Position numbers and translations under genes: made by a program. This document shows positions 187 through 27,736 of a DNA stretch of 64,000 nucleotides, one piece after another (within the stretch, counting starts at the first letter, position 1; the number at the start of each line of letters is the position of its first letter). Under the pieces are notes generated by a model, which was not told the DNA's origin, made no database searches, and saw nothing but the letters and a program-made list of their open reading frames with translations. Source of the stretch: a virus (lineage: Duplodnaviria > Heunggongvirae > Uroviricota > Caudoviricetes); the IMG/VR virus record IMGVR_UViG_3300009826_000019, positions 43,941-107,940 of that record. One strand, written 5' to 3'.

Positions 187-200
187 TACTCAAATGAGTA
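187..200 (+). promoter_or_regulatory. TACTCAAATGAGTA inverted-repeat motif
   Basis: 6-bp arms with an AA spacer; 11 identical copies, all in this orientation. Confidence 0.5.
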
Positions 201-239
201 TATTAAAAAAATAATCAATAACAATTAAAAAAAAAGAAA

Positions 240-536
240 ATGGGTTTTGTGAGATTAAATACTATTAAAAACAGTGGGTTTGAGCATACGATTACAGCCA
301 TATATGAGAATGATAGGTTTGTAAAAAATGAGGTTGTTGTTAGTGGTTTATTTAGGAATAAAATGCTTTCGGTTGTGCTTCATGTGTATCAAAACAGGGG
401 TAGTTTGGGTAATTTTGAATGGTGTCATTTTAATTGTGTGCGTGATAATTACGGCGTTGAGAGTGATAGACCGTCTTCCGTTCAAAACAATTTAAAGAAA
501 AAAATCCATAAAAGTATCAATCGAATATTGCAATAG
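240..536 (+). CDS. hypothetical early protein (98 aa)
   Basis: ORF track; A-rich leader before the ATG; the TACTCAAATGAGTA motif lies 40 nt upstream. Confidence 0.55.
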   Translation: MGFVRLNTIKNSGFEHTITAIYENDRFVKNEVVVSGLFRNKMLSVVLHVYQNRGSLGNFEWCHFNCVRDNYGVESDRPSSVQNNLKKKIHKSINRILQ

Positions 537-576
537 CATCGGAATAATATTTTAACATTATATTTAGGATAAATAA
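537..576 (+). promoter_or_regulatory. PeSL-like early promoter element P1
   Basis: CATCGGAATAATATTTTAACATTATATTTAGGATAAATAA; ATG at 612. Confidence 0.55.
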
Positions 577-611
577 AGATAACAATAACAATTAAAAATA
601 GATAAAATGCG

Positions 612-839
612 ATGGTGGTAGAATTTAACGTAGAGGATTGTCCTTTGTGTTTTGAAAAGGATGCGGGTTGGAGTAACAGTTGTTCGTATTGTGGTCAGCC
701 TGACCCACGATTTAATGATAATAATAATGATTGTCCTTTGTGTGGAGCCGAGGGGGAGGGTTTTACAAACAGTTGTATGTATTGTAGGGGTTGCGACCCA
801 CGATTGAAGCCCATTTTTGAATGTGAAGCATCGGAATAA
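612..839 (+). CDS. small protein with two tandem CPLC...SC.YC zinc-ribbon repeats
   Basis: ORF track; internal duplication DCPLCF..NSCSYCG / DCPLCG..NSCMYCRGC; element P1 upstream; ends ...ASE* inside the next element. Confidence 0.6.
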   Translation: MVVEFNVEDCPLCFEKDAGWSNSCSYCGQPDPRFNDNNNDCPLCGAEGEGFTNSCMYCRGCDPRLKPIFECEASE

Positions 840-868
840 CATTAAGATATTATATTTGATAGTATAGT
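829..868 (+). promoter_or_regulatory. PeSL-like element P2
   Basis: CATCGGAATAACATTAAGATATTATATTTGATAGTATAG; supplies the stop (ASE*) of 612..839. Confidence 0.55.
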
Positions 869-899
869 AAATAACAATAACAATTAAAACGATAAAAAA

Positions 900-1100
900 A
901 TGAGTGTATTTGTTGGGTGGTATGAGAGTACGAATGTACACAGTGTTGAAAAGCAATATAAAGAGCGTTGTGAGGCGTTGGGTGTGGAGTTTTCGAGGTA
1001 CGATTTTGAAGACTTTTTAGAGATTTGCGAAAGCAATTTTAGTGAATGGTTGGGTTTTCAGATTGAGAATTTTCACAGAGGCGAACCTCGAAAAGTTTAA
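900..1100 (+). CDS. hypothetical early protein
   Basis: ORF track; element at 829 upstream. Confidence 0.55.
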   Translation: MSVFVGWYESTNVHSVEKQYKERCEALGVEFSRYDFEDFLEICESNFSEWLGFQIENFHRGEPRKV

Positions 1101-1144
1101 AAAAAAAATATTATATTAGTATTTATTGCAGTGAATATTGATAT

Positions 1145-1218
1145 GTGCGCGTACCCAAAATGGTTAAGGGGGCAGTCTGCAAAACTGTTTTGTGCAGGTT
1201 CGAGTCCTGTCGCGCACT
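1145..1218 (+). tRNA. tRNA-Cys (GCA)
   Basis: Manual fold: acceptor GTGCGCG/CGCGCAC; anticodon stem GCAGT/ACTGT; loop CTGCAAA; T-arm GCAGG-TTCGAGT-CCTGT. Confidence 0.65.
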
Positions 1219-1317
1219 CTATAAAAACCGTATAAAATAATCGTATTAACATTAACGTTTCTGAATTTGGTTATATGCGGTTTTTTTCTTTTGATAACAA
1301 TAACAAATAAAAACATA

Positions 1318-1602
1318 ATGAAAAACATATTAAATACGGATACTGTTTCGGTTAAGGTATTATTTACGGGTGATGATAGTACATTTTCGTTTGATATACC
1401 ATTAGATGCTATTTTAGTGGGATTGGAAGCGGAGACTATAGAGTGGCGTGAATACGACCCTGTTTACTTTGAAAGTCAAGTTAGGGTTGAGGCGGTAAGT
1501 TTGGCAATGGATTTGTTTTGGGATAAAACAAAGAATTGGGATAACTTTGATATAAATGATTTCGAGGCAAGTTTTACATATATTCAAAGCGCAGGAAAAT
1601 GA
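1318..1602 (+). CDS. hypothetical protein (start moved to the ATG after the A-rich leader)
   Basis: ORF track 1267..1602; the ATG at 1318 follows the aacaataacaaataaaaacata leader seen at other starts. Confidence 0.5.
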   Translation: MKNILNTDTVSVKVLFTGDDSTFSFDIPLDAILVGLEAETIEWREYDPVYFESQVRVEAVSLAMDLFWDKTKNWDNFDINDFEASFTYIQSAGK

Positions 1603-1805
1603 AAATACCGATTGAAAATATTGCGATAGGGGAGACTTTTAAGTTTGTGCGTACTGCTAAAAACCCGTCTTCTCCTGTATGGCAAATAGTGGAAAAATAT
1701 GGATGGGGAGGTGTTTTAATTAAACAATTTGCTCAATATGTGGGAAATAAACCCAAAACCCGAATAATTGAGGGTTGTACTGTAGTTGTTTTAGATTTTG
1801 ATTGA
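1599..1805 (+). CDS. hypothetical protein
   Basis: ORF track; ATGA overlap with the upstream gene. Confidence 0.45.
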   Translation: MKIPIENIAIGETFKFVRTAKNPSSPVWQIVEKYGWGGVLIKQFAQYVGNKPKTRIIEGCTVVVLDFD

Positions 1806-1817
1806 ATTTCGGTATAG

Positions 1818-1857
1818 CATCGGAATAATATCTTAACATTATATTTAGGATATAATC
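1818..1857 (+). promoter_or_regulatory. PeSL-like element P3
   Basis: CATCGGAATAATATCTTAACATTATATTTAGGATATAAT. Confidence 0.55.
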
Positions 1858-1874
1858 AATTAAATATTTTAGAA

Positions 1875-2384
1875 ATGAAAATAAAAGATTTTATAGGCAC
1901 GTGTGGTTTGAGTTGGAGTGAGCATGAGCGCGACTTTGTAACTAAACTAATGGAAAAAGAGGGTTTTACCTTTGATGAGTGGGCTTACGTTGAGTTTGTT
2001 CGTGAAGACTTATCATTCATTAAGAAGTTGCCGAATGTAATGTTTCAAGGTGTTCACAAAAGTTGGTACACAAACAATCGCGAAATACAATTTAAGGCTA
2101 TTCCGCGTTACATACGTATAACGTTTTGTAAAAAGGAGGGTTTTATTCAGTTTCAACCAAAAGAAGACATAACACAGCAATATAGTTGTTTTGTTAAATT
2201 GGTTGGTGGGTTTGCCTACAAAGGAACGCACAGACAAGATGAGCAACAAGACGAATATAATGATATTCATAGTGATTATCATTATGATACGGAGTTGGAT
2301 ATTATAGTTGGCGAGGGGATTGAATCAGCGGCGACTATGGTGTTAAAAACAAAAAATTACGCAAAGAAACGGGGTTGGAAATAA
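1875..2384 (+). CDS. hypothetical early protein (169 aa)
   Basis: ORF track; element at 1818. Confidence 0.6.
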   Translation: MKIKDFIGTCGLSWSEHERDFVTKLMEKEGFTFDEWAYVEFVREDLSFIKKLPNVMFQGVHKSWYTNNREIQFKAIPRYIRITFCKKEGFIQFQPKEDITQQYSCFVKLVGGFAYKGTHRQDEQQDEYNDIHSDYHYDTELDIIVGEGIESAATMVLKTKNYAKKRGWK

Positions 2385-2400
2385 CCCCTTTTTTTCATAG

Positions 2401-2440
2401 CATCGGAATAACATTTCAATTTTATATTTAGGGTATAATA
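2401..2440 (+). promoter_or_regulatory. PeSL-like element P4
   Basis: CATCGGAATAACATTTCAATTTTATATTTAGGGTATAAT. Confidence 0.55.
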
Positions 2441-2463
2441 ATAACAATACAATATTAAACAAA

Positions 2464-3066
2464 ATGGTTAAGTTAGTAAAAGAGATTGAGGGTTTTACCT
2501 TTAGTGAGTTGAATAGTGATGCACAGCATACCGCAAAGGGTTGTGTTTTGGAATATGAGCGTGAGGCGGATTGGTTTTCCGAAGACATTGTAAACGATTT
2601 GTTGGAAAGTTTTGGGATAAGTGAATTGACTCCATATTTTTCTCTATCGTATTCACAGGGTGACGGTTTGTGTTTAAGTGGTTCGATTTCATTTAATGAT
2701 TTGTTGAATGAGAAGTTTAGAAAAATTGCTTTTGCTGGTATTCACCACACACAGATAAAAAGTATTGCACAGTATCTTTTTAGAGTTGAATTTTTGCACA
2801 GCGGCAATTATTATTATTCAAGTTCGGTTAATATTACCGATATGTGTGATAATGATGTACCCGATAACCAGGAGGCGATAATTGAAAAAGTTATTGCCAA
2901 CATTAAAAAATGGTATGCGGATTTTTGTCGGCAGTGGGAAAAGCGGGGTTATATGTATTTTTACGAAATTTCGGATGACGAAATGGTTGAAATTTGTGAA
3001 GACCGCGAGTGGTTTTTCACAGACAAGGGAAAAATCATAGGTTCGGATTTTCGACAAGTGGGTTAA
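2464..3066 (+). CDS. hypothetical protein, paralogue family A (with 15967..16611)
   Basis: Shared block TFSELN...LTPYFSLSYSQGDGLCLSGSISFNDLLNE vs LEPSFSLSHKQGDGLCLHGYISIDDILENE; element at 2401. Confidence 0.65.
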   Translation: MVKLVKEIEGFTFSELNSDAQHTAKGCVLEYEREADWFSEDIVNDLLESFGISELTPYFSLSYSQGDGLCLSGSISFNDLLNEKFRKIAFAGIHHTQIKSIAQYLFRVEFLHSGNYYYSSSVNITDMCDNDVPDNQEAIIEKVIANIKKWYADFCRQWEKRGYMYFYEISDDEMVEICEDREWFFTDKGKIIGSDFRQVG

Positions 3067-3103
3067 GAAAGTTTTTTGATTGATTATTATATGGTTTGGA
3101 GTT

Positions 3104-3135
3104 CCGCTGCCCCCGAAAACTTGGGGCGGCGTTTC
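3104..3135 (+). terminator. terminator hairpin
   Basis: CGCTGCCCC-CGAAAACTT-GGGGCGGCG followed by TTTCTCT. Confidence 0.55.
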
Positions 3136-3142
3136 TCTATTA

Positions 3143-3156
3143 TACTCAAATGAGTA
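3143..3156 (+). promoter_or_regulatory. TACTCAAATGAGTA motif
   Basis: Lies between terminator hairpin 3104..3130 and element P5. Confidence 0.5.
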
Positions 3157-3168
3157 TTGGTGGGATAG

Positions 3169-3208
3169 CATCGGAATAACATTTTACTTTTATATTTAGG
3201 ATATAATA
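3169..3208 (+). promoter_or_regulatory. PeSL-like element P5
   Basis: Consensus copy after terminator hairpin 3104..3130 and the TACTCAAATGAGTA motif. Confidence 0.55.
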
Positions 3209-3225
3209 ATTAAATAACAATAACA

Positions 3226-3462
3226 ATGAATTTTTATTACATAGTTAATTTTGACAATAAGTTTGTGGGTTGCGGGTTGTGTACTATGCAACAAATAAAT
3301 GATATTTGTAGTAATATACGTGGCGATAGAAACATAATTGTTTGTAAAGACGCAAATGATTATGAGCGCGCACAGGATGCGGTAAGGTATAGTTTGGGAT
3401 TACCTTTTTATAAATTGATTTCAATTATAAATGGTCAGTTCAATTTAATGCAAGTGAAATAA
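3226..3462 (+). CDS. hypothetical protein
   Basis: ORF track; element at 3169. Confidence 0.55.
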   Translation: MNFYYIVNFDNKFVGCGLCTMQQINDICSNIRGDRNIIVCKDANDYERAQDAVRYSLGLPFYKLISIINGQFNLMQVK

Positions 3463-3482
3463 CGATAAAAACAGACAATAAA

Positions 3483-3728
3483 ATGACTAAAAAAGAAGCA
3501 AAGGTTGTAGCCCTTACGATAATTAGGGATATGGAAAATAGATTGTCCGAGGAGTTGTACGGTGGTATGGGTCAGATTGACACAGAAACTAAAGAAAGGC
3601 GTTGGTATAACATGAATGAAACGGATATGATACAAAAGCAAATGACCGCTATATTTCATAAAATGGGAGTTGAGGTAACAAAGTTGGAAAACGAATTAGG
3701 TAGTTCCATAATTGTATTTGGCGGATAG
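3483..3728 (+). CDS. hypothetical protein
   Basis: ORF track. Confidence 0.5.
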   Translation: MTKKEAKVVALTIIRDMENRLSEELYGGMGQIDTETKERRWYNMNETDMIQKQMTAIFHKMGVEVTKLENELGSSIIVFGG

Positions 3729-3778
3729 TAAAATATTATGTGGTATGTAAGTAAGATTTACGTACCATATTTTTATTA

Positions 3779-3818
3779 CATCGGAATAATATTTTACTTT
3801 TATATTTAGGATATAATA
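3779..3818 (+). promoter_or_regulatory. PeSL-like element P6
   Basis: Consensus copy. Confidence 0.55.
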
Positions 3819-3841
3819 ATAACAATTAAAATTTTCATAAG

Positions 3842-4258
3842 ATGACAAAGACAGAGGTTAAACTTTTATATAATACATTACAGAGACAGGTTGAATTTGT
3901 AACTGAATTGGTGGACTCGGTAGACCAACACGTTGATATTTTGGGTTTGCCGTCATTTGCGGCGCAGTATTATAAAATGGTGGGTATGCGGCAAATGTTG
4001 GGTTTGACTGAAATTGCGAACAACAAAAGGCGGTTTTTTCTCTATGAGATAGATTTGCAGATAAATTACATTGAGCTACGTATTGCGTTGGATATGGTGG
4101 CAAAGGCCGAGGTTATTGAGGTAAAATGTGATTGTTGTGGCGGTTTAATGGATATTCATTCTGCGCACTATCCATGTGAAAATAACACAGACGTTGTTTT
4201 ATGTTACAGTTGTTTTTTAAGGTCGAATAACATATTTAGTAACAAAAATAAAGTATAA
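3842..4258 (+). CDS. hypothetical protein with Cys-rich C-terminus (CDCCGG...CYSC)
   Basis: ORF track; element at 3779. Confidence 0.55.
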   Translation: MTKTEVKLLYNTLQRQVEFVTELVDSVDQHVDILGLPSFAAQYYKMVGMRQMLGLTEIANNKRRFFLYEIDLQINYIELRIALDMVAKAEVIEVKCDCCGGLMDIHSAHYPCENNTDVVLCYSCFLRSNNIFSNKNKV

Positions 4259-4264
4259 AAAACA

Positions 4265-6143: not shown

Positions 6144-6200
6144 AATAGATATTGATTGATTATTGTTATATAATATTTCCTGAGGCGGGAAATGTTTAAT

Positions 6201-6244: not shown

Positions 6245-6258
6245 TACTCAAATGAGTA
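6245..6258 (+). promoter_or_regulatory. TACTCAAATGAGTA motif
   Basis: After hairpin 6201..6235. Confidence 0.5.
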
Positions 6259-6322: not shown

Positions 6323-6880
6323 ATGACAGAAAATAAAAGAAAAATATTTGAGAAAATTACCGATGTGTTGTTTTCTTGTGAAACAAAAGAGCATTTTCAA
6401 ACGTACAAAGGGTGGATTGAGAGATTACGTTGTAGTGGTACATTCGACACAAATGATATGATACTTATTTCAACTTTGAATGAGAAAAAGTTGGAGGCGG
6501 ATATAAAAATATTGTCGGCAAAGAAAACAATTATTGAGGAGTTGGAACGAGGTGCTATGTTTGTGGAAAGTTTAACAACACTTGAAAAAAGAGAGGTTAT
6601 TCGCGGTTTTGGAGACTTTATTTTAAGGTTTTTCAATAATAGAAACGAACAAAAACATTATTGCGTACACAATTTACCGTTGGGTATCAATTTATTGGAC
6701 TTCACGTTTGAAGATTATGTACCAACGTTGAAAATATATTTACAGCGACCAGGTCTTTTGATTGGTAAGGCTGGCGAAACGATTGACAGTTTGACAGAGG
6801 GTTTGAGAGAATTTTCAAAACAACCCAATTTACAAATTTCGATTGTAGAAACATTTGGATACAAAGATTACGATTGGTAG
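6323..6880 (+). CDS. hypothetical protein with C-terminal KH-like motif (GLLIGKAGETIDSL)
   Basis: GxxGxxG-type KH signature near the C-terminus; variant element at 6264. Confidence 0.55.
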   Translation: MTENKRKIFEKITDVLFSCETKEHFQTYKGWIERLRCSGTFDTNDMILISTLNEKKLEADIKILSAKKTIIEELERGAMFVESLTTLEKREVIRGFGDFILRFFNNRNEQKHYCVHNLPLGINLLDFTFEDYVPTLKIYLQRPGLLIGKAGETIDSLTEGLREFSKQPNLQISIVETFGYKDYDW

Positions 6881-7379: not shown

Positions 7380-7401
7380 GAATTATATTTAAAGAAAATA
7401 A
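7362..7401 (+). promoter_or_regulatory. PeSL-like element P11 (degenerate 3' half)
   Basis: CATCGGAATAATATGTAGGAATTATATTTAAAG. Confidence 0.4.
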
Positions 7402-7540
7402 AAAAATTATCATTTTACTATGCAAATTTTGTTTCTTATCTTTATACCATTGATAAGGGATAACAGGAGGAAACCGCCAAGGGTATGGTGTGTCGAGAGT
7501 TGTAAGTAAAATGATAGTTTTTTAAATAAAAACAAAAAAA

Positions 7541-8211: not shown

Positions 8212-8646
8212 ATGGAAAGTAGAAAAATTGTGTGGACAGGTTGTCAACTAATTGGAAAACTTATTGTAAAAGAATTTTCCACAGTATTTCCCGAATTTAA
8301 GATTAGCACTAAAGAGGAACAATATAATAGTAATGTGCAAAGACAAATTGTTATTGTAATGGAGTTCAATGGTGTGGACACTACGGATGGACTTATGGTT
8401 TTAACAGTTCAACAGCGATTAAATGAAGACAAACCCTTTGTTTATATGGATAGCATAGGTATCCCCGAAGCGATACGGGGTAATGGTTTAAGTAGAAAAA
8501 TATTGGATTGTTTTTGTAAAATGGTGCAGGCGGGGGTTTTCAATCACCTCAATATAAAAGATTGGAGTGACGGATATTGGGGTCATGTTAAAAAAGATTT
8601 CCCCTTTGTACGTGATAAATACACTAATGGTTGGTTAGCAGGTTAA
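8212..8646 (+). CDS. hypothetical protein, possibly a GNAT-like acetyltransferase (weak)
   Basis: IRGNGLSRKIL resembles GNAT motif A; weak. Confidence 0.45.
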   Translation: MESRKIVWTGCQLIGKLIVKEFSTVFPEFKISTKEEQYNSNVQRQIVIVMEFNGVDTTDGLMVLTVQQRLNEDKPFVYMDSIGIPEAIRGNGLSRKILDCFCKMVQAGVFNHLNIKDWSDGYWGHVKKDFPFVRDKYTNGWLAG

Positions 8647-8899
8647 ATTAGTGTATATTTAAAAAGTAATTTATTCATAGTTGTTAAGATAGTAATTTGG
8701 GGGTCGCATGGCGGCTATTCGGATAAAAAAAACATATTAGGCGATAGTATCAGTACCAATGTGCCTTCAGCAAGCACTACCCAGCTTTAATTGTTTTTCC
8801 CAAGCGGTAACAATGACCCCCGATTACTTTTTTGAGAATGGGCATGGAACGATAGAATCCTTGTTCGTTCTCTTTTTTTTTAATTTCTATCCACAATAA

Positions 8900-8939
8900 C
8901 ATCGGAATAATATGTTGTGATTATATTAAGAGTATAATT
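8900..8939 (+). promoter_or_regulatory. PeSL-like element P13
   Basis: Consensus copy. Confidence 0.5.
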
Positions 8940-8952
8940 AAAAATAATAACA

Positions 8953-9192
8953 ATGGACAAAAATAAAATTTCAGTAATACAGAGGTTTGCGCAGGAGGTT
9001 TATGATAATCTTTTGAAGTTATACCCCGAAAAAAGTGATTACACGTTGGAACATAATTTTCACTACCTATGTGGTGTGGATATGCTTGTATGTTCGGTGA
9101 TATGGGATGATGATAGGTGTTTATTCCAATTTTTTGATTACACGATAGAGAATTTTAACGCAATTAAAGACGGAGGTTTTCCATGCGAATGA
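8953..9192 (+). CDS. hypothetical protein
   Basis: ORF track; element at 8900. Confidence 0.55.
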   Translation: MDKNKISVIQRFAQEVYDNLLKLYPEKSDYTLEHNFHYLCGVDMLVCSVIWDDDRCLFQFFDYTIENFNAIKDGGFPCE

Positions 9193-9599
9193 CAGAAAAA
9201 CAGATAAAAAAAGGCGAACAACTTGCAAAAAGGTTTGAGGGTCTTATGTTAAAGGGTGTTATCGTAGCAAACACGTTTGAATTTTGGGATGCCATTATTG
9301 TTGACCCCAACAGATTTTTGAAAGGGTTTATTGATACAGAGGGTTTGAGGTCGTATGTTTATTACGATGGGTTTGACGATATTCTTGTCAGTAGCGATGC
9401 TCTTGCAGGGTTTAATTTCAGTGCATTGCAGGAAATTATGAAGTCGGTAAATGATTTCGTTACATACCTCAATTATCTTACGTGGTTGTTGTATAAGGAT
9501 TTACTCCACAATTACAGATACCACCACACAGGATTTGAATTGTTTGATATTTTCAGAACGGATGGGTTGTTCCTACGTTTGAAGTTATCGTATAAATAA
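9183..9599 (+). CDS. hypothetical protein
   Basis: ORF track; the stop abuts the TACTCAAATGAGTA motif. Confidence 0.5.
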   Translation: MRMTEKQIKKGEQLAKRFEGLMLKGVIVANTFEFWDAIIVDPNRFLKGFIDTEGLRSYVYYDGFDDILVSSDALAGFNFSALQEIMKSVNDFVTYLNYLTWLLYKDLLHNYRYHHTGFELFDIFRTDGLFLRLKLSYK

Positions 9600-9613
9600 T
9601 ACTCAAATGAGTA
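9600..9613 (+). promoter_or_regulatory. TACTCAAATGAGTA motif
   Basis: Abuts the stop codon of 9183..9599. Confidence 0.5.
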
Positions 9614-10981: not shown

Positions 10982-11041
10982 GATTTTTGTTGATTATTAT
11001 TATAATTTGGGTTGAGGTTTTTATCTCAACCCATTTTTATA

Positions 11042-12140: not shown

Positions 12141-12156
12141 AAAAAAGTGGGTAGCG

Positions 12157-12196
12157 CATCGGATTACTACCCTCTTTTTATATTAAGAATATAAAA
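12157..12196 (+). promoter_or_regulatory. PeSL-like element P17, variant embedded in terminator hairpin 12149..12172
   Basis: GGGTAG-CGCATCGGATTA-CTACCC then TCTTTTTATATTAAGAATATAA. Confidence 0.5.
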
Positions 12197-12219
12197 TAAC
12201 AATAAAAAATAAAATACAA

Positions 12220-12798: not shown

Positions 12799-12814
12799 AA
12801 AAAAATGGGGGTAG

Positions 12815-12854
12815 CATCGGATTACTACCCCCTTTTTATATTTAGAATATAACA
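12815..12854 (+). promoter_or_regulatory. PeSL-like element P18, variant embedded in hairpin 12807..12832
   Basis: GGGGGTAG-CATCGGATTA-CTACCCCC then TTTTTATATTTAGAATATAA. Confidence 0.5.
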
Positions 12855-12873
12855 ATAATAAAACTAATAAAAA

Positions 12874-13223: not shown

Positions 13224-13859
13224 ATGAGAGTATTAGAATTAAGTAACGATTTTTTTGGTAAAATGTTGTTGTACGGACATATTGATACGTACAGTGGTGA
13301 CTTAAACCCCGATTACTTTGATAACAGAGATTGGGATGAGGATGAAGATTCGGAATTTGATTACGAGGAGTTTCTTTCAGACGTTAACGATGAAATTGAT
13401 TATTGGTTTGCCGATACGGTTTTCGAGAGATATTTCAAACCATTGGGTTTCGCGGAAATTAGAAACTCCGAATTACAAAGACCAAAATATTACAATTACA
13501 CAGGCGACAAAGTAACATTTCAATTACTTTATGACCCCGCAAAGTTTGGTGGATTGTTTTTCACTTCGTTTGAAGACTGGGCAATCTCAATTTTAGAAGG
13601 TGTTGGGGGTAAGTTTCGCAGTGATATGGAAGCGTTTTTGGCGGAGGAATTTTCTTCACAACCAGGGTTTGTTTCCTGGACGCCTAATAACATTAAGGAT
13701 TTGAAAAAAGCGTTAGCAGATGACCACAATATTTTTCACGCAATTAACGCCTTTGTAGCAGCCTTTTTACACGCAAAAATAGCAGCGGGTGAAATTGAAA
13801 TATTAACCCCAAACGATTTTAATGAGATTGTTGAACGAATGAACAACAGGTACTACTAA
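13224..13859 (+). CDS. hypothetical protein (211 aa)
   Basis: ORF track; element at 13148. Confidence 0.6.
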   Translation: MRVLELSNDFFGKMLLYGHIDTYSGDLNPDYFDNRDWDEDEDSEFDYEEFLSDVNDEIDYWFADTVFERYFKPLGFAEIRNSELQRPKYYNYTGDKVTFQLLYDPAKFGGLFFTSFEDWAISILEGVGGKFRSDMEAFLAEEFSSQPGFVSWTPNNIKDLKKALADDHNIFHAINAFVAAFLHAKIAAGEIEILTPNDFNEIVERMNNRYY

Positions 13860-13873
13860 TACTCAAATGAGTA
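13860..13873 (+). promoter_or_regulatory. TACTCAAATGAGTA motif
   Basis: Abuts the stop codon of 13224..13859. Confidence 0.5.
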
Positions 13874-15179: not shown

Positions 15180-15349
15180 AAAACAAAAGATATGATAATG
15201 TTTTATGAAATATTAAATTATGTTTTGCTTGGTATGGTCATATTTTGGTCTATTTGGGGGGTTGCTTTGTGTGTTGGATTGATTGGCGCAATTATCAAAT
15301 TTACAATCGAAGCGTTTACAGGAAAATAAAAAATGTTATTCCGACATAA

Positions 15350-15389
15350 CATCGGAATAACATTGAAAAATTATAATGAATAGTATAAG
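15350..15389 (+). promoter_or_regulatory. PeSL-like element P22 inside a perfect 12-bp inverted repeat
   Basis: ATGTTATTCCGA-CATAACA-TCGGAATAACAT. Confidence 0.5.
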
Positions 15390-18183: not shown

Positions 18184-18215
18184 GATTATTTGATTTGTAG
18201 TTTGTGTTTGTTGTT

Positions 18216-18255: not shown

Positions 18256-18269
18256 TACTCAAATGAGTA
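18256..18269 (+). promoter_or_regulatory. TACTCAAATGAGTA motif
   Basis: After terminator hairpin 18216..18245. Confidence 0.5.
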
Positions 18270-19069: not shown

Positions 19070-19080
19070 TCATATACATA

Positions 19081-19130
19081 ATTGTATATATACAAAAACG
19101 TATATATACAATTTTGCATATATACAAAAA
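19081..19130 (+). promoter_or_regulatory. three TATATATACAA direct repeats (first is the palindrome TTGTATATATACAA) upstream of the DUF262 gene
   Basis: tgtatatatacaaaaacgtatatatacaattttgcatatatacaaaaatg. Confidence 0.45.
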
Positions 19131-19140
19131 TGAATACATA

Positions 19141-19680
19141 ATGAAAACTTTAGAACAATTAAGATTACATAACCCCTACGAAACGCGAGAGATGGGGTCT
19201 TCGCTGAAATATTTGAATAGGCGGTATCATGAGGGTAAAATTGATTTCAACGTTTATCTTACCTCAATAGACCAAAATTTACAACGCCCATTTGTTTGGA
19301 CACTGCATCAGAAGCAGGAGTTGGTGCGTTCAGTGTTTTATAGGCGACCGATTACCGATTTGACGATTATCAATCGTTTTGACGATACATTGGAAATAAT
19401 TGACGGAAAACAAAGATTACATAGTCTTTTGTTGTTTTTAAATAACGATTTCGGTTTGTGGTTTGACGAAAATGAATATCATAAATTTGAAACATTACCT
19501 CCCGATTATCAAAAGGAATTTGAAAATTATGTGGTACGTTATACTGAAATACTTGAATGGACAACCCCAATCCCCGATTTGTTTAAAATACAGTTTTTTA
19601 ATCAAATAAATTTTGCGGGTACTCCGCAGGATAGGGATCATATTAAGAGTTTAATGAAATTGTCAGGTACATCGGAATAA
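19141..19680 (+). CDS. DUF262 (ParB/GmrSD-N-like) domain protein
   Basis: QRPFVW...IIDGKQRLHSLLLFL matches the DUF262 DGQQR-type motif; unusual upstream region of three TATATATACAA repeats instead of the PeSL element. Confidence 0.55.
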   Translation: MKTLEQLRLHNPYETREMGSSLKYLNRRYHEGKIDFNVYLTSIDQNLQRPFVWTLHQKQELVRSVFYRRPITDLTIINRFDDTLEIIDGKQRLHSLLLFLNNDFGLWFDENEYHKFETLPPDYQKEFENYVVRYTEILEWTTPIPDLFKIQFFNQINFAGTPQDRDHIKSLMKLSGTSE

Positions 19681-20627: not shown

Positions 20628-20855
20628 TTTAGGTACGAAAGAAAAAATAAAAAGAGTATATTTATAAAAGTATTAAGGGGGTTATTCACCTGAGCCGTTT
20701 CGGTTAATGTGTTAAAAGCACAACCCTAAGCTAGGCCACCTTCGGGTATTGGGTTATGTGACTATCCCACACGTAAAACCCCTTTGGAAACTTGTGGCGA
20801 ATACTCCACCATTGAGCGTTAAGTTATTATAGTTATAGACGCTCTTTTTTTATTG

Positions 20856-20869
20856 TACTCAAATGAGTA
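20856..20869 (+). promoter_or_regulatory. TACTCAAATGAGTA motif
   Basis: After structured GC-rich region 20690..20830. Confidence 0.5.
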
Positions 20870-20892
20870 TTAATCATTAACAAATAACAGTA

Positions 20893-21470: not shown

Positions 21471-21479
21471 AAATAATAT

Positions 21480-21642
21480 GGGAGTAGTGGCGGAGTTGGT
21501 TTAACGCAGGGGGCGATAAGGGAAAGCGAATGTCTGATAAGAAGTTGGAATAGCAATGCGAACCGTAAAACCCGAAACCCCACGATAACAACTAATTCGA
21601 CTTGTATGTTATCTCGTAGGTTCAAATCCTACCTATTCCCCT
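21480..21642 (+). ncRNA. aberrant tRNA-like element (~160 nt)
   Basis: Acceptor-like GGAGTAG...CTATTCC pairing; D-loop-like AGTTGGTTTAA; perfect T-arm GTAGG-TTCAAAT-CCTAC; ~85 nt inserted where the anticodon arm should be. Confidence 0.4.
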
Positions 21643-21654
21643 AATAAACAAACA

Positions 21655-21834
21655 ATGGATAATACTGAATGGAATCCTGGATATTCTCCTTGTTCAAATT
21701 GTTCGGAAACATATCGAAAAAGACCTCGTTGTAAAAAATTGGGGTGTCCTGTTTATGTGGAAATTGAACGTAAAGCAGATGATTTACTTGAAAAATACTC
21801 AAATGAGTATAGTATTAAAAGAAGATCGGAATAA
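21655..21834 (+). CDS. small Cys-rich (zinc-ribbon-like) protein, 59 aa
   Basis: Manual ORF; CSNCSE...CKKLGC; the stop is supplied by the next PeSL-like element (RSE*). Confidence 0.4.
   Translation: MDNTEWNPGYSPCSNCSETYRKRPRCKKLGCPVYVEIERKADDLLEKYSNEYSIKRRSE
21796..21809 (+). promoter_or_regulatory. TACTCAAATGAGTA motif
   Basis: Inside small ORF 21655..21834, where it encodes YSNEY. Confidence 0.5.
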
Positions 21835-22899: not shown

Positions 22900-23628
22900 A
22901 TGAAACAGTATACGGATTTTTATAAAACAATGATTGGAAATACCCAATTTGAAGAAATATTGGCGAACACAACATTTGGTGGTTCTACTGCAATAGATAA
23001 TTTGCATAAAATTTGTATGGAGTATGTTCTCGGACAAACACAAAGTCCTAAAGAGGTTGTGTATTGGAAAAAGGGTGGACCTAAAAACATAGAATTTCGC
23101 CCCGCTTATTTAAGTGAGGAGTACCGTAAAAAATGGAATGTGTCTAAAAGTTTGAAATATCTTGAAATATGGATGGATGGTCGTAAAATTGACAACAAGT
23201 TATACCGTTTTGGTTGGAATGATGAGTGGAGTGAGGGGTATATCTCTATACTTCAAGCAAGGGAAGCGTATTACGAATCTCATATTACAAAAAAAATAAA
23301 GGAACAACGTCATTTGGCTGAACACAAAACTATATTGAACGATCAAGGTAAAATTGTGTTTGTTAATGAAGAAAACTATCTTCGAGATGAACTATCACAA
23401 GTAAAGGGGTTTATTTGGAAACGTGGTAAAACGGTATTTAATATCGAAACCAACTTTATTTACACAAATTTCGGCGACAAATTTTTTACCAGCGATAGAT
23501 ATGCGTTTATTGAAATTGCGTATGCAGGTAACAAATATAACAACTCGGAAAACGAAGAAAATGGTGTTTTACAAATAGACTGTGTGTCGGGTGGTTCAAC
23601 GTTGTTTGTTCGGTCGGGGCGTAGATAA
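22900..23628 (+). CDS. hypothetical protein (242 aa)
   Basis: ORF track; variant element at 22820. Confidence 0.6.
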   Translation: MKQYTDFYKTMIGNTQFEEILANTTFGGSTAIDNLHKICMEYVLGQTQSPKEVVYWKKGGPKNIEFRPAYLSEEYRKKWNVSKSLKYLEIWMDGRKIDNKLYRFGWNDEWSEGYISILQAREAYYESHITKKIKEQRHLAEHKTILNDQGKIVFVNEENYLRDELSQVKGFIWKRGKTVFNIETNFIYTNFGDKFFTSDRYAFIEIAYAGNKYNNSENEENGVLQIDCVSGGSTLFVRSGRR

Positions 23629-23631
23629 CAA

Positions 23632-23645
23632 TACTCAAATGAGTA
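23632..23645 (+). promoter_or_regulatory. TACTCAAATGAGTA motif
   Basis: Three nt after the stop of 22900..23628. Confidence 0.5.
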
Positions 23646-23660: not shown

Positions 23661-23927
23661 ATGGTTGAGAAAGAAATAAAATGGATTGAAGTAAAAGATG
23701 GTGAGGGGTTTTTTAATAAACCCCCACACACTTTAGGTGTTTGTAAAAAATGTGGTGAGTCTGCGTGGATTATAAATGCTTGGGTTGAAGGTGCTGACCC
23801 CTGTACAAAATGTGGTGGGGTTATGGAACTTAAAAATGTTTTCGGTGGTAAATGTGATACTGCCATAAAAATACTTACAAATGGTTGCTTCGGAAGCCCA
23901 TTTATTATAAACAAAAATAAAATTTAA
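23661..23927 (+). CDS. zinc-ribbon protein (CKKCG...CTKCGG)
   Basis: ORF track. Confidence 0.5.
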   Translation: MVEKEIKWIEVKDGEGFFNKPPHTLGVCKKCGESAWIINAWVEGADPCTKCGGVMELKNVFGGKCDTAIKILTNGCFGSPFIINKNKI

Positions 23928-23933
23928 AATAAT

Positions 23934-24077
23934 ATGAAAATAGTAGAATGGATAGACAGTAGTATTACCTTATTTCCAGGTAATAATTGGATTTTAATAA
24001 CCCTTGCAGTATGGTTAGTCATTAGAGGAATATTATCCCTGTGGGGATACGCAAAACTCGTTAAAAAAATAAGATAA
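23934..24077 (+). CDS. small membrane protein (47 aa)
   Basis: Manual ORF; hydrophobic core WILITLAVWLVIRGIL. Confidence 0.35.
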   Translation: MKIVEWIDSSITLFPGNNWILITLAVWLVIRGILSLWGYAKLVKKIR

Positions 24078-24078
24078 A

Positions 24079-24249
24079 ATGACAACAGAAGAAATTAAAA
24101 AATGGTTGCAATCGGAAATTGATTTGATTGAAAAGGATTGGGATCAATTTCCACCACAATATTGTGGGGCTGTTGAAGCAGCGATTCAAACACGAGAAAA
24201 AGATGCTAAAATTGAATTATTGTATAGATTAATAAGTAATTTGGAGTAA
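24079..24249 (+). CDS. hypothetical small protein
   Basis: Manual ORF. Confidence 0.35.
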   Translation: MTTEEIKKWLQSEIDLIEKDWDQFPPQYCGAVEAAIQTREKDAKIELLYRLISNLE

Positions 24250-24250
24250 A

Positions 24251-24469
24251 ATGACAAAAAAACAAAGAGAATATAGCGAAGCTCGTGCTATCGGACAATA
24301 TGGTCTGAATAAAAGAGATTACTTTGCCGCATTAGCAATGCAGGGGATGATAGCAAACCCAACTTATCTTCACCCCACTATACTTGCAGAAAGAAGTGTT
24401 GAATACGCTGATGCTGTGATAAAAAGATTAGTAGAAACCGAACCATTCCCGATATATGATGAAGATTAA
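24251..24469 (+). CDS. hypothetical protein
   Basis: ORF track. Confidence 0.5.
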   Translation: MTKKQREYSEARAIGQYGLNKRDYFAALAMQGMIANPTYLHPTILAERSVEYADAVIKRLVETEPFPIYDED

Positions 24470-24737
24470 AAAACATTTATACGTAAAATACGGTCTTATA
24501 ACCTTTAAAGACGTTATGCGCATGTTATTTGGTGTGAAAAAGTATTTCTATTTGGAACCCTTCATATACATTAATGGTTGGGGGAAACCCTGTGAAACTC
24601 ACGAAATGAGTAGCGTGGTGCGTTGGTTGGATAAGAAAACTGTTTCTGAATACAGCGAAGTACGTGCTATGAGGTATTGGAATAATATTTTAACGGAAAA
24701 ATACAAACTCCAAAATTCAGCAATATATTATTTTTAA
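24456..24737 (+). CDS. hypothetical protein
   Basis: ORF track. Confidence 0.45.
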   Translation: MMKIKKHLYVKYGLITFKDVMRMLFGVKKYFYLEPFIYINGWGKPCETHEMSSVVRWLDKKTVSEYSEVRAMRYWNNILTEKYKLQNSAIYYF

Positions 24738-24805
24738 ATCATAATGTATAATATCCCGAACATTATCCTAATACAATGTTTAATATTTTGAACATTGTAT
24801 TGTAG

Positions 24806-24845
24806 GATCGGATTATGATATTAGAATTATATTTTGGTTTAAACT
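24806..24845 (+). promoter_or_regulatory. PeSL-like element P33 (variant)
   Basis: GATCGGATTATGATATTAGAATTATATTTTGG. Confidence 0.4.
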
Positions 24846-24861
24846 AAAAAAACAATTAAAA

Positions 24862-25437
24862 ATGAAATCTGAATATAAGTTATCAAAGGATGCGCGAACG
24901 CGTCATGTAAATAGTAAGGAACCTGATTTTTTACCTTATTCGACTTTGTGTGTAAAACCAAGTGAATATTGGCATAAAACCGTTCAAATGGAGGGGTTTG
25001 CTGAACAAATAGAAAATATGTGGAATAGCGAAAATAGTAGTTATACGGAGTTTATCCTAAAATTACCTATGCGTTTTCCGTATCGAATGATGCCCACAAT
25101 AATAAGGGTACATAAAGTTTTCGGTATTGTTAGGGGGGAAGATATTTTTACTAACCGTAAAGTAAATCATTTGGAAGTTGAAATTTTGTTTGACTGCGCT
25201 GTTACAAGTGTTGTTCGCTTTTCAATTCACATGTACGATTTAAAGGGAAATTTGAATACACGCGAACTCCTCGAATTGTATATTACAATGGGGTTTGAAC
25301 AATTTAACAATATATGGGAAGAAACAAATAAACACTTAAACAACGATTATCAAACCGCTCGTAGAGGTGGTAATGCTATCACAGACGTAAATTACACTAA
25401 AGAGGAATTATTGGTGTTACTCAAAGAGTATTTGTAG
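24862..25437 (+). CDS. hypothetical protein (191 aa)
   Basis: ORF track; variant element at 24806. Confidence 0.55.
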   Translation: MKSEYKLSKDARTRHVNSKEPDFLPYSTLCVKPSEYWHKTVQMEGFAEQIENMWNSENSSYTEFILKLPMRFPYRMMPTIIRVHKVFGIVRGEDIFTNRKVNHLEVEILFDCAVTSVVRFSIHMYDLKGNLNTRELLELYITMGFEQFNNIWEETNKHLNNDYQTARRGGNAITDVNYTKEELLVLLKEYL

Positions 25438-25491
25438 ATTGGATAAAAAAGTTGTTAATTTATTAGACAGTAAAAATTTTAATTAAAATAA

Positions 25492-25662
25492 ATGCAAATG
25501 GATAATATGTTCAAAGTAGTGGCAGTAGAGGATGACGGTAAGGTTAATAACCACTATTATCCCACGTTAAAAACAGCGATAAATGCTGCTGACGCAATTA
25601 GCGAGTTCTTTTCAGATGCTGTCGAGGTATTTGATAAAGAAGGCAAGCGTGTTCATTATTAG
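25492..25662 (+). CDS. hypothetical small protein
   Basis: Manual ORF followed by terminator hairpin 25673..25698. Confidence 0.35.
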   Translation: MQMDNMFKVVAVEDDGKVNNHYYPTLKTAINAADAISEFFSDAVEVFDKEGKRVHY

Positions 25663-25672
25663 TGATGGTACA

Positions 25673-25704
25673 TCCACCCGATTAAGTTTGGGTGGGTGTT
25701 TTTT
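25673..25704 (+). terminator. rho-independent terminator
   Basis: ATCCACCCG-ATTAAGTTT-GGGTGGGTG followed by T6. Confidence 0.65.
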
Positions 25705-25722
25705 CCATTAAATTCCGAATAG

Positions 25723-25762
25723 CATCGGAATAATATTATAAGATTATATTAGATAACAGTAT
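25723..25762 (+). promoter_or_regulatory. PeSL-like element P34 with flanking 7-bp inverted repeat ATTCCGA/TCGGAAT
   Basis: Last + strand copy. Confidence 0.5.
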
Positions 25763-25778
25763 TAACAAAAAAATAAGA

Positions 25779-26210
25779 ATGGTTAAGAGAAGCGTAAAAG
25801 AAATATTAGATAATTTATTGGCAGAAACTCGATTTGAGTTTGCTGTGCTTCATTATTCTGACGGCTGCGGTTATGTGCAGTGTGCAAAATTCGGGGCAGT
25901 AAATGTGGTGGCAACAAAAGACGGTAACATTGAAGTTGTCGTTGATAAACCATGCTCCAGGATAGGCGACAACGATTTATTAATAAATCAGTTGTTCGCT
26001 TTTTTTGCGTTGAAATATCCTGAATACAAAGGTCATGTTGGTATGGGTTTTCACTCACAAAAAGGGGTTATAACCCTGAAAGTACCTGAAAAAGCAAAAA
26101 TAAACAACATAGTTAGAATACTCCGAGAGAGTTTTGACGACAAAATAGATGGTTATTGTTGGAAGACCGAATATTTGGAGTTGGTGGCAAAAAGAATATT
26201 AAACAGTTAG
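25779..26210 (+). CDS. hypothetical protein
   Basis: ORF track; element at 25723. Confidence 0.6.
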   Translation: MVKRSVKEILDNLLAETRFEFAVLHYSDGCGYVQCAKFGAVNVVATKDGNIEVVVDKPCSRIGDNDLLINQLFAFFALKYPEYKGHVGMGFHSQKGVITLKVPEKAKINNIVRILRESFDDKIDGYCWKTEYLELVAKRILNS

Positions 26211-26212
26211 AT

Positions 26213-26452
26213 ATGCACTATTTTTGTATTAATGATACGTTGTATCGAATGACCGAAAAAAACTTTAAACGGTTATGTAAGAAATATCCTATGAAAAAGT
26301 ATCCGAATGATTATGAAACGGAACAATCATATATTCATAAAATAGGACAAGCCACTAGGTTTGATGAAGGTTCTACTCATGAGGAATGTTTAGATTGGAT
26401 TATTGATAATTCAAAATTAGTGAATCAAGTTGTTCATGTTCATAATTATTAA
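26213..26452 (+). CDS. hypothetical protein (start moved to the first ATG after the upstream stop)
   Basis: ORF 26156..26452 overlaps the upstream gene; in-frame ATG at 26213. Confidence 0.5.
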   Translation: MHYFCINDTLYRMTEKNFKRLCKKYPMKKYPNDYETEQSYIHKIGQATRFDEGSTHEECLDWIIDNSKLVNQVVHVHNY

Positions 26453-26469
26453 TTTAAAACCAAAATAAT

Positions 26470-26688
26470 ATGCCGATAGTTGAACAAGCACCATTAGTAG
26501 TGTGTGATATATGTGAAAAAAAGGAAGTGATGACGACTAATTCCTATATGTATCAATTTTGGAAAATAAGTCTGAAACAAATGTATTGTTCGGGAAAAAC
26601 CCGACAGTATCATAATGACGAATGGGGTATTCAAAAGGATTATATCCTGTGTACCGATTGTAAAAACAAACTAATAAATTTGAAGTAA
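26470..26688 (+). CDS. hypothetical Cys-rich protein
   Basis: ORF track. Confidence 0.5.
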   Translation: MPIVEQAPLVVCDICEKKEVMTTNSYMYQFWKISLKQMYCSGKTRQYHNDEWGIQKDYILCTDCKNKLINLK

Positions 26689-26854
26689 TGGATACAAAAA
26701 ATTTGTTTTCATCAACTAGTTTTTTGGTGTGTGGAATTACCAACACAGTGTTTCTACATTTAACACAACAATTTTTCTTTGTTGGTGTTGTTGCGTTTTT
26801 TCTATTGATGCTTTATCTCCAAGTACATTTTAAGAATAAACCTTGATTGTACTA

Positions 26855-26868
26855 TACTCAAATGAGTA
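26855..26868 (+). promoter_or_regulatory. TACTCAAATGAGTA motif
   Basis: At the 5' end of 26862..27068. Confidence 0.5.
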
Positions 26869-27068
26869 CATATATGAAGTTAGAAAACATAGAAACAGAA
26901 AAATATAAAGTAAAGAAACTCGGTCGAAACGAAGCATGTATCGGTGGATTACTTGTTAAAGTTGTTGAGAATAAAATCTCACCAACCAACACTTTTAAAG
27001 ACGCTGAAATTGGTTCGGTACTTGACCTATGGGGTAAATTGAACGGAGTAAGATTAATTTTAACATAA
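26862..27068 (+). CDS. hypothetical protein (start uncertain: 26862 or 26874)
   Basis: The ORF track begins at a TTG at 26847; the first ATG lies inside the TACTCAAATGAGTA motif. Confidence 0.4.
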   Translation: MSTYMKLENIETEKYKVKKLGRNEACIGGLLVKVVENKISPTNTFKDAEIGSVLDLWGKLNGVRLILT

Positions 27069-27079
27069 AAATAAAGAAA

Positions 27080-27301
27080 ATGTTTGTAATTGAAAAAATT
27101 GAAAATTTATATACCGATATTCTTGAAAAAGAAATTATTGGTTACGCTGATTCGGAAGCGCAAGCATGTGTTTCACTTTTACGCCTAAAACGTGAACAAG
27201 TAATGGGTGGAAAAACCTATGTGGGTGGAAATGGGGAAGATTATCCTCAATATAATTATTATACAATTCCCCATATAGATCAGATTCGTATTTATCATTA
27301 A
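27080..27301 (+). CDS. hypothetical protein
   Basis: ORF track. Confidence 0.5.
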   Translation: MFVIEKIENLYTDILEKEIIGYADSEAQACVSLLRLKREQVMGGKTYVGGNGEDYPQYNYYTIPHIDQIRIYH

Positions 27302-27313
27302 ACAAAAAATAAA

Positions 27314-27688
27314 ATGAAAGTAGAAGTTGAAATAAAAACACAACTCACTGTTGAGTTTGACGAAAACTCCAAAGAATTTTTGGAATTATACAAAAAATAT
27401 TGGAGTAAAGATACTGAAAATATTAAAGATAAGGATTATCGGTATTTCGCTGAAAGTATGGCTGAAAAACTTATGCTTGGCAATGTAGATAATTTTTATC
27501 AATTCATTGAACTTGATGCTGGTGGAAATGAAACCGGTTGTTTAAAAATAAATGGGGAAGCAGTTGGTTATAGTGAAGACGAGGAAATACCCAATTCCCC
27601 CATTAATTTTATTATCCCACAATTTGATAGGGGGGGTAGTGATGTTTTTCTTCATTGGGATACCGATTCATATATCATAGAAGAATAA
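27314..27688 (+). CDS. hypothetical protein
   Basis: ORF track; last gene of the + strand array. Confidence 0.55.
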   Translation: MKVEVEIKTQLTVEFDENSKEFLELYKKYWSKDTENIKDKDYRYFAESMAEKLMLGNVDNFYQFIELDAGGNETGCLKINGEAVGYSEDEEIPNSPINFIIPQFDRGGSDVFLHWDTDSYIIEE

Positions 27689-27722
27689 TATGATAATAGA
27701 ATGGTAGAAGGCATTGGTAATA

Positions 27723-27736
27723 ATACTCAAATGAGT
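27723..27736 (+). promoter_or_regulatory. TACTCAAATGAGTA motif
   Basis: Last copy, at the end of the + strand array. Confidence 0.5.

Follow-up and report, generated by a model that had tools for sequence, protein, structure and literature searches.

What does a short palindrome do when it recurs, letter for letter, along one gene array of a giant phage and ceases where that array ends? The question is posed by 64,000 nucleotides of a Caudoviricetes genome (IMG/VR record IMGVR_UViG_3300009826_000019, positions 43,941 to 107,940), the whole of which we call the window and number from its first letter. In it, the 14-base near-palindrome TACTCAAATGAGTA is present in 11 exact copies, 11/11 on the + strand, against an expected count of 0.00 (maximum 0) in dinucleotide-preserving shuffles. 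An earlier note on this DNA had listed these copies, all 11 of whose coordinates we reproduce exactly, and had read the motif as either a dimeric DNA-binding-protein site or an RNA-processing site. The finding is larger than first noted: an exact, boundary-associated 16-bp-class palindrome defines an early-type region and recurs across an uncultivated clade of jumbo phages. Between the two proposed roles the evidence leans towards DNA, short of proof of a DNA-level role, and with a probability of roughly 0.4 we take the motif to be a double-stranded-DNA recognition site for a symmetric-dimer protein, which would mark the boundaries of transcription units and be conserved across the clade.

An exact palindrome and its gene array

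Over 10,536 nt the window matches the contig ena:ERZ27264051:k141_2927976 (367,985 bp) with 100% identity, and it crosses the contig ends, indicating that this assembly is circularly permuted. Statements on the source phage rest on ~90 kb of its 368-kb genome, which has a GC content of 34% and encodes a portal and a prohead protease distantly of T4 type, as well as a DnaK resembling that of 'huge phages'; megablast of the window against GenBank phages gave no near relatives. At a divergent point ~11 kb upstream of the window begins a 38.8-kb array, 80% coding, of ~100 small + strand genes, nearly all ORFans; we infer from its architecture that the array is early. Its in-window part is:

1 to 27737, + strand: array of small genes, with all window copies of the motif inside it

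Upstream of the window are another six exact copies, likewise on the + strand (at -10471, -9493, -7151, -5689, -3382 and -1381 in window coordinates), giving a total of 17 for the source phage that is coextensive with the array. All 17 fall inside its 38.8 kb and on its coding strand, vs none in 51.6 kb elsewhere in the same phage (window 27.75-64 kb, 9.9 kb past the window end and 5.4 kb before the array). The reported absence of copies after 27.7 kb hence holds to the window end and 9.9 kb beyond, and the motif is not shared between strands in this phage. At least 15 of the 17 copies are intergenic in an array whose intergenic share is 20% (p = 2e-9), the remaining two falling in doubtful open reading frames (ORFs) of 44 and 59 amino acids (aa). 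Successive copies are on average 2.5 kb apart, at intervals more regular than chance would give (coefficient of variation 0.435, p = 4e-4).

The 17 copies are identical, and no variant with one or two mismatches occurs across 74 kb. Allowing ≤2 mismatches in the window recovered nothing extra but the reverse complements of known sites, and the nearest sequences that are not copies (window plus 9.8 kb upstream) differ at ≥3 positions. The motif is therefore all-or-none. Its description as usually extended to the full 16-mer ATACTCAAATGAGTAT is borne out by six of the 11 window copies and fails in the other five (-1 is A in 10/11, +1 is T in 7/11); the consensus, ATACTCA-AA-TGAGTAT, consists of two 7-bp half-sites ~9 bp apart. 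Copy flanks differ beyond ~5 nt on the 5' side (a loose TATAA) and 1 nt on the 3' side, and the motif-adjacent genes show no paralogy, so the copies are independent, as had been supposed, and not pieces of a longer duplication; the idea that the adjacent genes are duplicated cassettes was dropped on the same ground. A full-text literature search for the 14-mer returned no match.

The same core in other jumbo phages

IMG/VR was matched with the 14-mer and with 16-mers, and a 16-mer scan brought up a relative of the source phage, IMGVR_UViG_3300009784_000001, a jumbo phage of 359,943 bp with a GC content of 26%, of which 41.3 kb were assembled from five loci. The two phages have ~10 early genes in common, at 39-56% amino-acid identity. 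The relative carries 10 exact 14-mers, not syntenic with the window copies, seven in gene sense and three inverted; two of the 10 are intragenic, one of them in a CCA-adding enzyme gene where it is read YSNEY, and most others stand close after stop codons. Its promoters differ, being Bacteroidetes-style TAnnTTTG motifs. Complete IMG/VR scans for the 16-mers ATACTCAAATGAGTAC and GTACTCAAATGAGTAC gave 38 and 57 stretches, respectively, and at least 10 further large contigs (42-393 kb, GC 26-52%) bear 2-7 or more dispersed exact copies, mostly intergenic and 0-60 nt past a stop. Several of these contigs hold homologues of genes from the window or the relative. Looking for homologues of the early proteins gave next to no matches.

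Across 71 distinct copies from ~14 contigs, spanning GC 26-52%, the core is invariant, with A/T at -1/+1 in both studied jumbo phages and G/C elsewhere. Orientation is steady within some lineages and mixed in others (50 sense and 17 antisense overall); in 3300028886_000029 all seven copies are antisense (TT) to the genes and still abut stop codons. The strand specificity first reported thus holds for the source phage (17/17) but does not belong to the element as such, since copies in the relative are split (7 sense, 3 antisense) and those in the other lineage all run the opposite way (7/7). Sites turn over in position while their sequence stays constant, and this letter-perfect recurrence in giant-phage contigs of differing base composition, all of them from metagenomes only, points to one conserved recognition system; the motif is almost certainly a site that some conserved factor reads.

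The palindrome was also met in a different arrangement. An unrelated 33-kb phage contig (L072, 6541-6690) contains six GGTACTNATTTGAGTAC units 22, 32 or 33 bp apart (approximately multiples of 11 bp), placed between the gene of a 239-aa HTH_36 protein, upstream of which the units lie, and a C5-methyltransferase gene. The units vary without compensation, in an arrangement typical of DNA iterons or operators, and they are probably an iteron or origin array that uses the same palindrome.

Placement of the copies and what may recognise them

Almost every array gene is preceded by a 45-bp promoter-like element (gCATCGGAATAATATnnTAAnnTTATATTnagnGTATAAyAATAACAAT), which the earlier note called PeSL-like and of which the array holds ~61 copies. 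Three more occur on the - strand at the divergent start of the array. The elements and the 11 window copies of the motif are placed as follows:

558 to 25744, + strand: ~38 copies of the promoter-like element within the window
L243 288-9305 and L458 6311-8125: promoter-like elements outside the window
187 to 200, + strand: motif immediately behind ORF 25-186 (0 nt from its stop), with ATG 240 following at 39 nt and no promoter-like element downstream
3143 to 3156, + strand: motif in terminator-motif-promoter order, with a GC-rich hairpin and T-run just 5' and the ATCGGA element starting 13 nt 3'
6245 to 6258, + strand: motif in terminator-motif-promoter order, beginning 9 nt after the T-run start, with ATCGGA 6 nt downstream
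9600 to 9613, + strand: motif immediately behind ORF 9183-9599 (0 nt from its stop), with ATG 9655 following at 41 nt and no promoter element downstream
13860 to 13873, + strand: motif 0 nt past the stop of ORF 13224-13859; promoter element 21 nt downstream
18256 to 18269, + strand: motif in terminator-motif-promoter order, 10 nt after the T-run start of a -18 kcal/mol hairpin, with ATCGGA 4 nt downstream
20856 to 20869, + strand: motif 11 nt after a terminator T-run start, closing a structured intergenic region of 229 nt; ATG 20893 follows at 23 nt
21796 to 21809, + strand: motif inside the doubtful 59-aa ORF 21655-21834, in frame YSNEY; promoter element 15 nt downstream
23632 to 23645, + strand: motif 3 nt past the stop of ORF 22900-23628, with ATG 23661 following at 15 nt
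26855 to 26868, + strand: motif in a 27-nt intercistronic gap, 8 nt past the stop; its own ATG 26862 or ATG 26874 opens the next ORF
27724 to 27737, + strand: last motif copy, at the array end and a convergent junction, 35 nt past the + strand stop at 27688; the - strand ORF 27741-28035 has its stop 3 nt away

The copies thus stand where units of transcription and of translation meet, about every 2.5 kb. Nine of the 17 copies begin 0-35 nt past an upstream stop codon, four of them at 0 nt, and six begin 9-17 nt after the start of an intrinsic-terminator T-run. The copies named as abutting stops (9600, 13860 and 23632) do so, joined by those at 187 and 26855, and those named as lying between a terminator hairpin and the next PeSL-like element (3143, 6245 and 18256) are so placed. 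Eight copies precede a promoter-like element, ending 3-21 nt before it (in the window those at 3143, 6245, 13860, 18256 and 21796); copies without such an element have their next ATG at a distance of -7 to 124 nt. Five copies (-10471, -9493, 3143, 6245 and 18256) show a tight terminator-motif-promoter order, with 3-13 nt from motif end to promoter element. Given the variable distances to the ATG (-7 to 124 nt) and to the promoter element (3-21 nt), the motif is neither a fixed-position promoter box nor a translational operator. It stands beside only 8 of the ~61 promoter elements, and an obligate coupling to terminators was dropped, the motif being found at only 5-6 of ~30.

The motif has the features of an operator, namely dyad symmetry and two half-sites about one helical turn apart, both conserved, and in the 71 distinct copies neither arm shows compensatory or G-U change. 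The five copies in the terminator-promoter gap, the least-transcribed spot of the array, lie outside both the terminated upstream transcript and the one initiated downstream, which argues against a function in RNA. The non-syntenic, partly inverted and partly intragenic copies of the relative fit a symmetric DNA site that is gained and lost, and the L072 palindromes, by varying without compensation, support by analogy the use of this palindrome at the DNA level. A factor bound there could insulate or road-block transcription between units or, alternatively, modulate the adjacent promoter elements in a switch away from early expression; its occupancy would act on the array as a whole, not on particular genes. 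The central AA/TT and the loose 5' TATAA would make the site slightly asymmetric, and we propose that this is why orientation is uniform within a lineage and untied to the direction of transcription across lineages.

Candidates for the factor come from Pfam and PHROG scans of ~50 proteins of the array or conserved in the relative, which revealed no nuclease, RNA-binding or helix-turn-helix (HTH) family apart from Trans_reg_C, GmrSD_N and sub-threshold matches to KH_2 and TerB_C. The first is an OmpR-type winged-helix protein (113 aa, E = 1e-13) encoded near the array start just outside the window, and it is the only annotated DNA-binding protein common to both jumbo phages. An exact copy of this gene of the source phage occurs in the metagenome of the 360-kb relative (L460, JGI 3300009784), showing that both jumbo phages co-occur in one sample. 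Two window genes are further leads:

19114 to 19680, + strand: gene of a GmrSD_N (formerly DUF262) protein of the ParB/Srx superfamily, inside the array; a weak lead
27741 to 28035, - strand: 97-aa ORF abutting the last copy, with an HTH-looking segment by eye; an unsupported candidate, with no significant family match and no homologue detected in the relative

Several points weigh against a symmetric DNA site. Orientation is uniform, 17/17 here and 7/7 the opposite way in 3300028886_000029, and this is not what one would expect of a dimer site with perfect symmetry. The block that contains the copies is transcribed in one direction, and read-through RNA would include most of them; a weak but consistent RNA hairpin is predicted, and the modest excess of palindromy in the flanks fits a folded single strand too. 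Exact invariance is unusual for transcription-factor sites. The cognate protein is only at the candidate stage, the winged-helix link being one of co-occurrence in two genomes, and the OmpR/PhoB family usually binds direct repeats, not inverted ones.

Some of these points bear directly on the strongest competitor, an RNA element: a hairpin in read-through or polycistronic early RNA that a phage RNA-binding protein or endoribonuclease would recognise, processing or destabilising mRNAs. The 6-bp arms had been called too short for a stable RNA hairpin, which is too strong: folding predicts a stem of 5-6 bp capped by an AAAU loop, with energies of -4 to -5.5 kcal/mol and z-scores that mostly fall between -2 and -5. 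Hairpins are predicted for 10/11 window copies at -4 to -10 kcal/mol, and at the last copy, 27724, the flanks lengthen the palindrome to give a predicted RNA fold of -10.2 kcal/mol. Also in favour are the sense orientation of 17/17 copies within a one-directional block and of 50/67 orientable copies across lineages, the intercistronic placement, often 0-8 nt past a stop, and an early protein (6323-6880) with a sub-threshold KH_2 match that is conserved in the relative. Flank pairing is modestly raised: the palindrome extension averages 1.35 vs 0.78, the pairs -1/+1 to -6/+6 are formed in 39-75% of copies (G-U at -1/+1 in eight), and covariation is 0.169 vs 0.130 ± 0.012 in shuffles (0/500), in a set where same-lineage copies are related. 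The stem itself is weak and AU-rich and lacks compensatory or wobble variation, although its five core pairs never vary and are hence uninformative on compensatory change. The five copies between terminator and promoter element would be absent from most transcripts, and antisense copies make up 7/7 in one lineage, still abutting stops, and 3/10 in the relative. Rfam scans found only tRNAs, and at gathering thresholds the motif belongs to no known RNA family. An RNA element is a possible but doubtful explanation.

Rather unlikely, in our judgement, is a more specific DNA-level proposal, in which the motif would be the parS-type loading site of a ParB-family clamp specific to uncultivated Bacteroidetes-type jumbo phages, and the ~17 sites would nucleate a nucleoprotein domain over the array, silencing, insulating or spatially organising the first-expressed 10% of the genome. 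The relative encodes an HTH_ParB protein (E = 1e-6; L296 1684-3907 region, contig 37.2-39.4 kb) near an SMC_N/AAA-type ATPase, the two genes being separated by one 97-aa gene, with an ABC-type ATPase nearby; this cluster could be a phage DNA-organising module, and the adjacent SMC-like ATPase might take part in such a system. Contig 3300028805_000041 encodes a ParB_N protein (E = 5e-10), and in both phages 3.5-5 kb separate the ParB-family genes from copies of the motif. The 90 kb of the source phage yielded no HTH-bearing ParB; ORF 63351-63926 there includes a 21-residue HTH_ParB-like stretch, and pairwise comparison showed the GmrSD_N/DUF262 protein to be dissimilar to the ParB-like proteins that the related phages encode. 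The motif is absent from three contigs with genes for homologues of the relative's ParB (L461-L463), which counts against the link; on this ground, and given the dissimilar DUF262 protein, the link to these ParB proteins was dropped.

The extragenic position just past stops, the non-syntenic sites of related phages despite an identical core, and an orientation uniform in blocks and untied to transcription would also suit a mobile palindrome of the repetitive extragenic palindromic (REP) type, spread as single-stranded DNA by an HUH/RAYT-type enzyme whose specificity, rather than any benefit to the phage, would account for conservation. Some copies even have differing extended palindromic flanks (AAATAG...CTATTT, TTAAGG...CCTTAA, ATATG...CATAT). 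However, REPs as described in PMC3733652 are 20-40-bp imperfect palindromes with a GTAG or CGTC tag at one end, whereas the core here is only 14-16 bp and without either tag. Its copies are singletons, not doublets, and no Y1 transposase/RAYT was present among the Pfam-annotated called genes (~62 kb) or the ORFs at 10-64 kb scanned separately. Even spacing and identity across lineages of GC 26-52% would be unexpected of a selfish element, and we regard this origin as unlikely.

The motif could alternatively be the promoter of a second temporal class, a hairpin or extended -10-like sequence read by a phage-specific polymerase or sigma factor and firing downstream. Copies follow terminators and precede genes, six of the window and upstream copies precede genes without the early-type promoter element, and TATAAT is often spelled by the 5' flank together with the first T. 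A gene shortly before the array, ~14.5 kb ahead of window position 1 (L458 3699-4259), encodes an ECF-like protein of the sigma-70 family (186 aa, with regions 2 and 4), which could be the reader of the unusual 45-bp element. Exactness of this kind in the motif recalls single-polymerase promoters, among them those of T7 and N4. Against a promoter stand the distance to the next start codon (-7 to 124 nt), the want of any conserved companion element at constant spacing in either direction, a last copy that faces a convergent gene, and inverted and intragenic copies in relatives that would fire antisense. With respect to N4-type hairpin promoters, orientation is strict here (17/17), with inversion of 3/10 copies in the relative and 7/7 in the other lineage, and no N4-type virion RNA polymerase gene was seen in the 90 kb of the source phage. 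A promoter is quite improbable, and its sigma-70-type or MotA form was rejected outright, there being no information at fixed distances beyond -5..+1, an erratic ATG distance and no MotA box.

The faintest of the alternatives, which we hold to be very improbable indeed, is a strand-specific nick or other enzymatic DNA mark made by a motif-reading phage nuclease, as in T5 or phiKMV-like phages: exactness, a single orientation throughout the source-phage sequence and dispersed, even spacing would suit it, but a symmetric enzyme would cut both strands of a near-perfect palindrome, orientation is mixed in relatives, the motif is limited to ~10% of the genome and no nuclease could be linked to it. 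Avoidance of the half-site, considered as a sign of such a nuclease, was discarded, since the depletion of TACTCA is only mild (rank ~45-75 among 3,300 hexamers) and is absent from the relative. Other identities were also rejected: an intrinsic terminator (5-6 AU-rich pairs and an A-rich 3' flank without a T-run, the genuine terminators being upstream of the motif); a host transcription-factor regulon, which the bacterial-genome matches listed do not support (single ones scattered over several phyla, bar one probably mis-binned phage contig); and likenesses to 16S rRNA 907-918, LexA, CIRCE, IHF boxes, Cas12a repeats and the tf/phiKMV nick consensus, which found no support. We place protein recognition at the DNA level first, an RNA hairpin or processing site second, and REP-like, promoter and nick-site readings behind them.

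Other features of the array and relation to known systems

The promoter-like elements have peculiarities of their own. Their upstream half is often the loop of a stem (e.g. 12141-12219, 12799-12873 and 15332-15364), and a scan of IMG/VR with the pattern did not find it, metagenome contigs giving only single, apparently unrelated matches. A TTTTTGATTGATTATT(G/A)TTATATAAT-like stretch, which resembles the reverse complement of the promoter leader ATAACAATAA, recurs between a stop codon and the following terminator at 3067-3095, 6144-6175, 10982-11008 and 18184-18215. Long, GC-richer, ORF-free intergenic stretches occur at 20628-20892, 21471-21654, 7380-7540 and 8647-8952; Rfam at a looser E-value threshold, run on the first two only, gave no significant match. 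Within the second, 21480-21650 is tRNA-like (acceptor, D and T arms), interrupted by a ~90-nt insert and missed by ARAGORN, and in L539 a motif copy is followed by another tRNA-like gene with a similar interruption (8488-8610). Three direct repeats (T)ATATATACAA(AAA) lie at 19070-19140, immediately upstream of the GmrSD_N/DUF262 gene.

Beyond the array, the window encodes auxiliary proteins unusual for a phage (31607-31987, 41487-42086, 43063-43827, 36666-37499 and 49395-51796), including a SiaC-family regulatory phosphoprotein, a beta-type carbonic anhydrase, a histidine kinase (HisKA and HATPase_c), an SPFH/Band 7 protein, DnaK and Hsp20. The histidine kinase could be the partner of the OmpR-type output domain that stands alone in the array. 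Window 55847-64000 differs from the 368-kb European Nucleotide Archive contig (L454) by 33 mismatches and 7 gaps (99.5% identity), whereas other assemblies are 99.99-100% identical to the window and the array part is identical, indicating strain-level variation localised near the portal region. There is strong avoidance, on both strands, of many 6-bp palindromes in the array and in window 27.75-64 kb (GAATTC 0 vs 26-39 expected, ATCGAT 0 vs 16-29 expected, with GATATC, GGTACC, CAATTG, TTCGAA, ATGCAT and CATATG likewise depleted), which suggests unmodified DNA exposed to host restriction.

The recognition system proposed here would act on the early, host-takeover part of the genome, where almost nothing is annotated. 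The motif can serve as a searchable marker for the phage clade and its early regions, as bait for pulling down the factor, and as an entry to the question of how early transcription is organised or shut down in a T4-like phage of 368 kb whose promoter elements, ~61 in number, are near-identical. Should it prove a parS-like or boundary system, it would mean that lytic phages control a region of their genome in a way new to science.

Among known systems, the setting recalls the PeSL and MotA promoters of T4, with an early array of small genes having their own promoters and the motif beside PeSL-like elements. The motif is nevertheless separate from these (17 vs ~61 copies), at varying promoter distance and without hexamers at fixed spacing, and, as had been stated, it is unrelated to the MotA box (a/t)(a/t)(a/t)TGCTTtA, no MotA-box sequence being present. 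In being short and intercistronic, lying in early polycistronic RNA and presumably having a dedicated factor, it is like the T4 RegB sites, the T7 RNase III sites and lambda nut boxB; lambda nutR also follows a stop codon. Unlike them it has five copies outside the predicted transcripts, is reversed in some lineages and does not resemble GGAG, ~20-bp double-stranded RNA or boxB loops. With REPs and bacterial interspersed mosaic elements it shares an extragenic position just past stops, a capacity to form hairpins, non-syntenic sites and high similarity within a genome, but it is much shorter, has no GTAG/CGTC tag and no RAYT found with it, numbers only tens of copies and is identical between distant genomes. 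The parS sites are likewise 16-bp palindromes kept across very divergent genomes, with several copies in ~10% of the genome at non-syntenic, occasionally intragenic positions, and ParB-family genes are near motif copies in two related phages; the motif sequence, however, is unrelated to canonical parS, and orientation bias and gene-boundary placement are not parS features.

A further likeness is to operators dispersed over a plasmid or phage and bound by one global regulator, such as the 12 KorB OB palindromes of plasmid RK2 and the dispersed SopB centromere repeats of prophage N15. The motif departs from these in being confined to one co-directional array, nearly all intergenic and uniformly oriented within the genome, in having a core identical across phages of GC 26-52%, and in that its cognate protein is at the candidate stage. 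Like them, it comprises about a dozen near-identical palindromes of 13-16 bp at variable distances from promoters, with a regional action that would be exerted through one dimer. Altogether, the motif resembles the dispersed operators or loading sites of a global DNA-binding protein more closely than a promoter, a terminator, a REP or any known RNA element.

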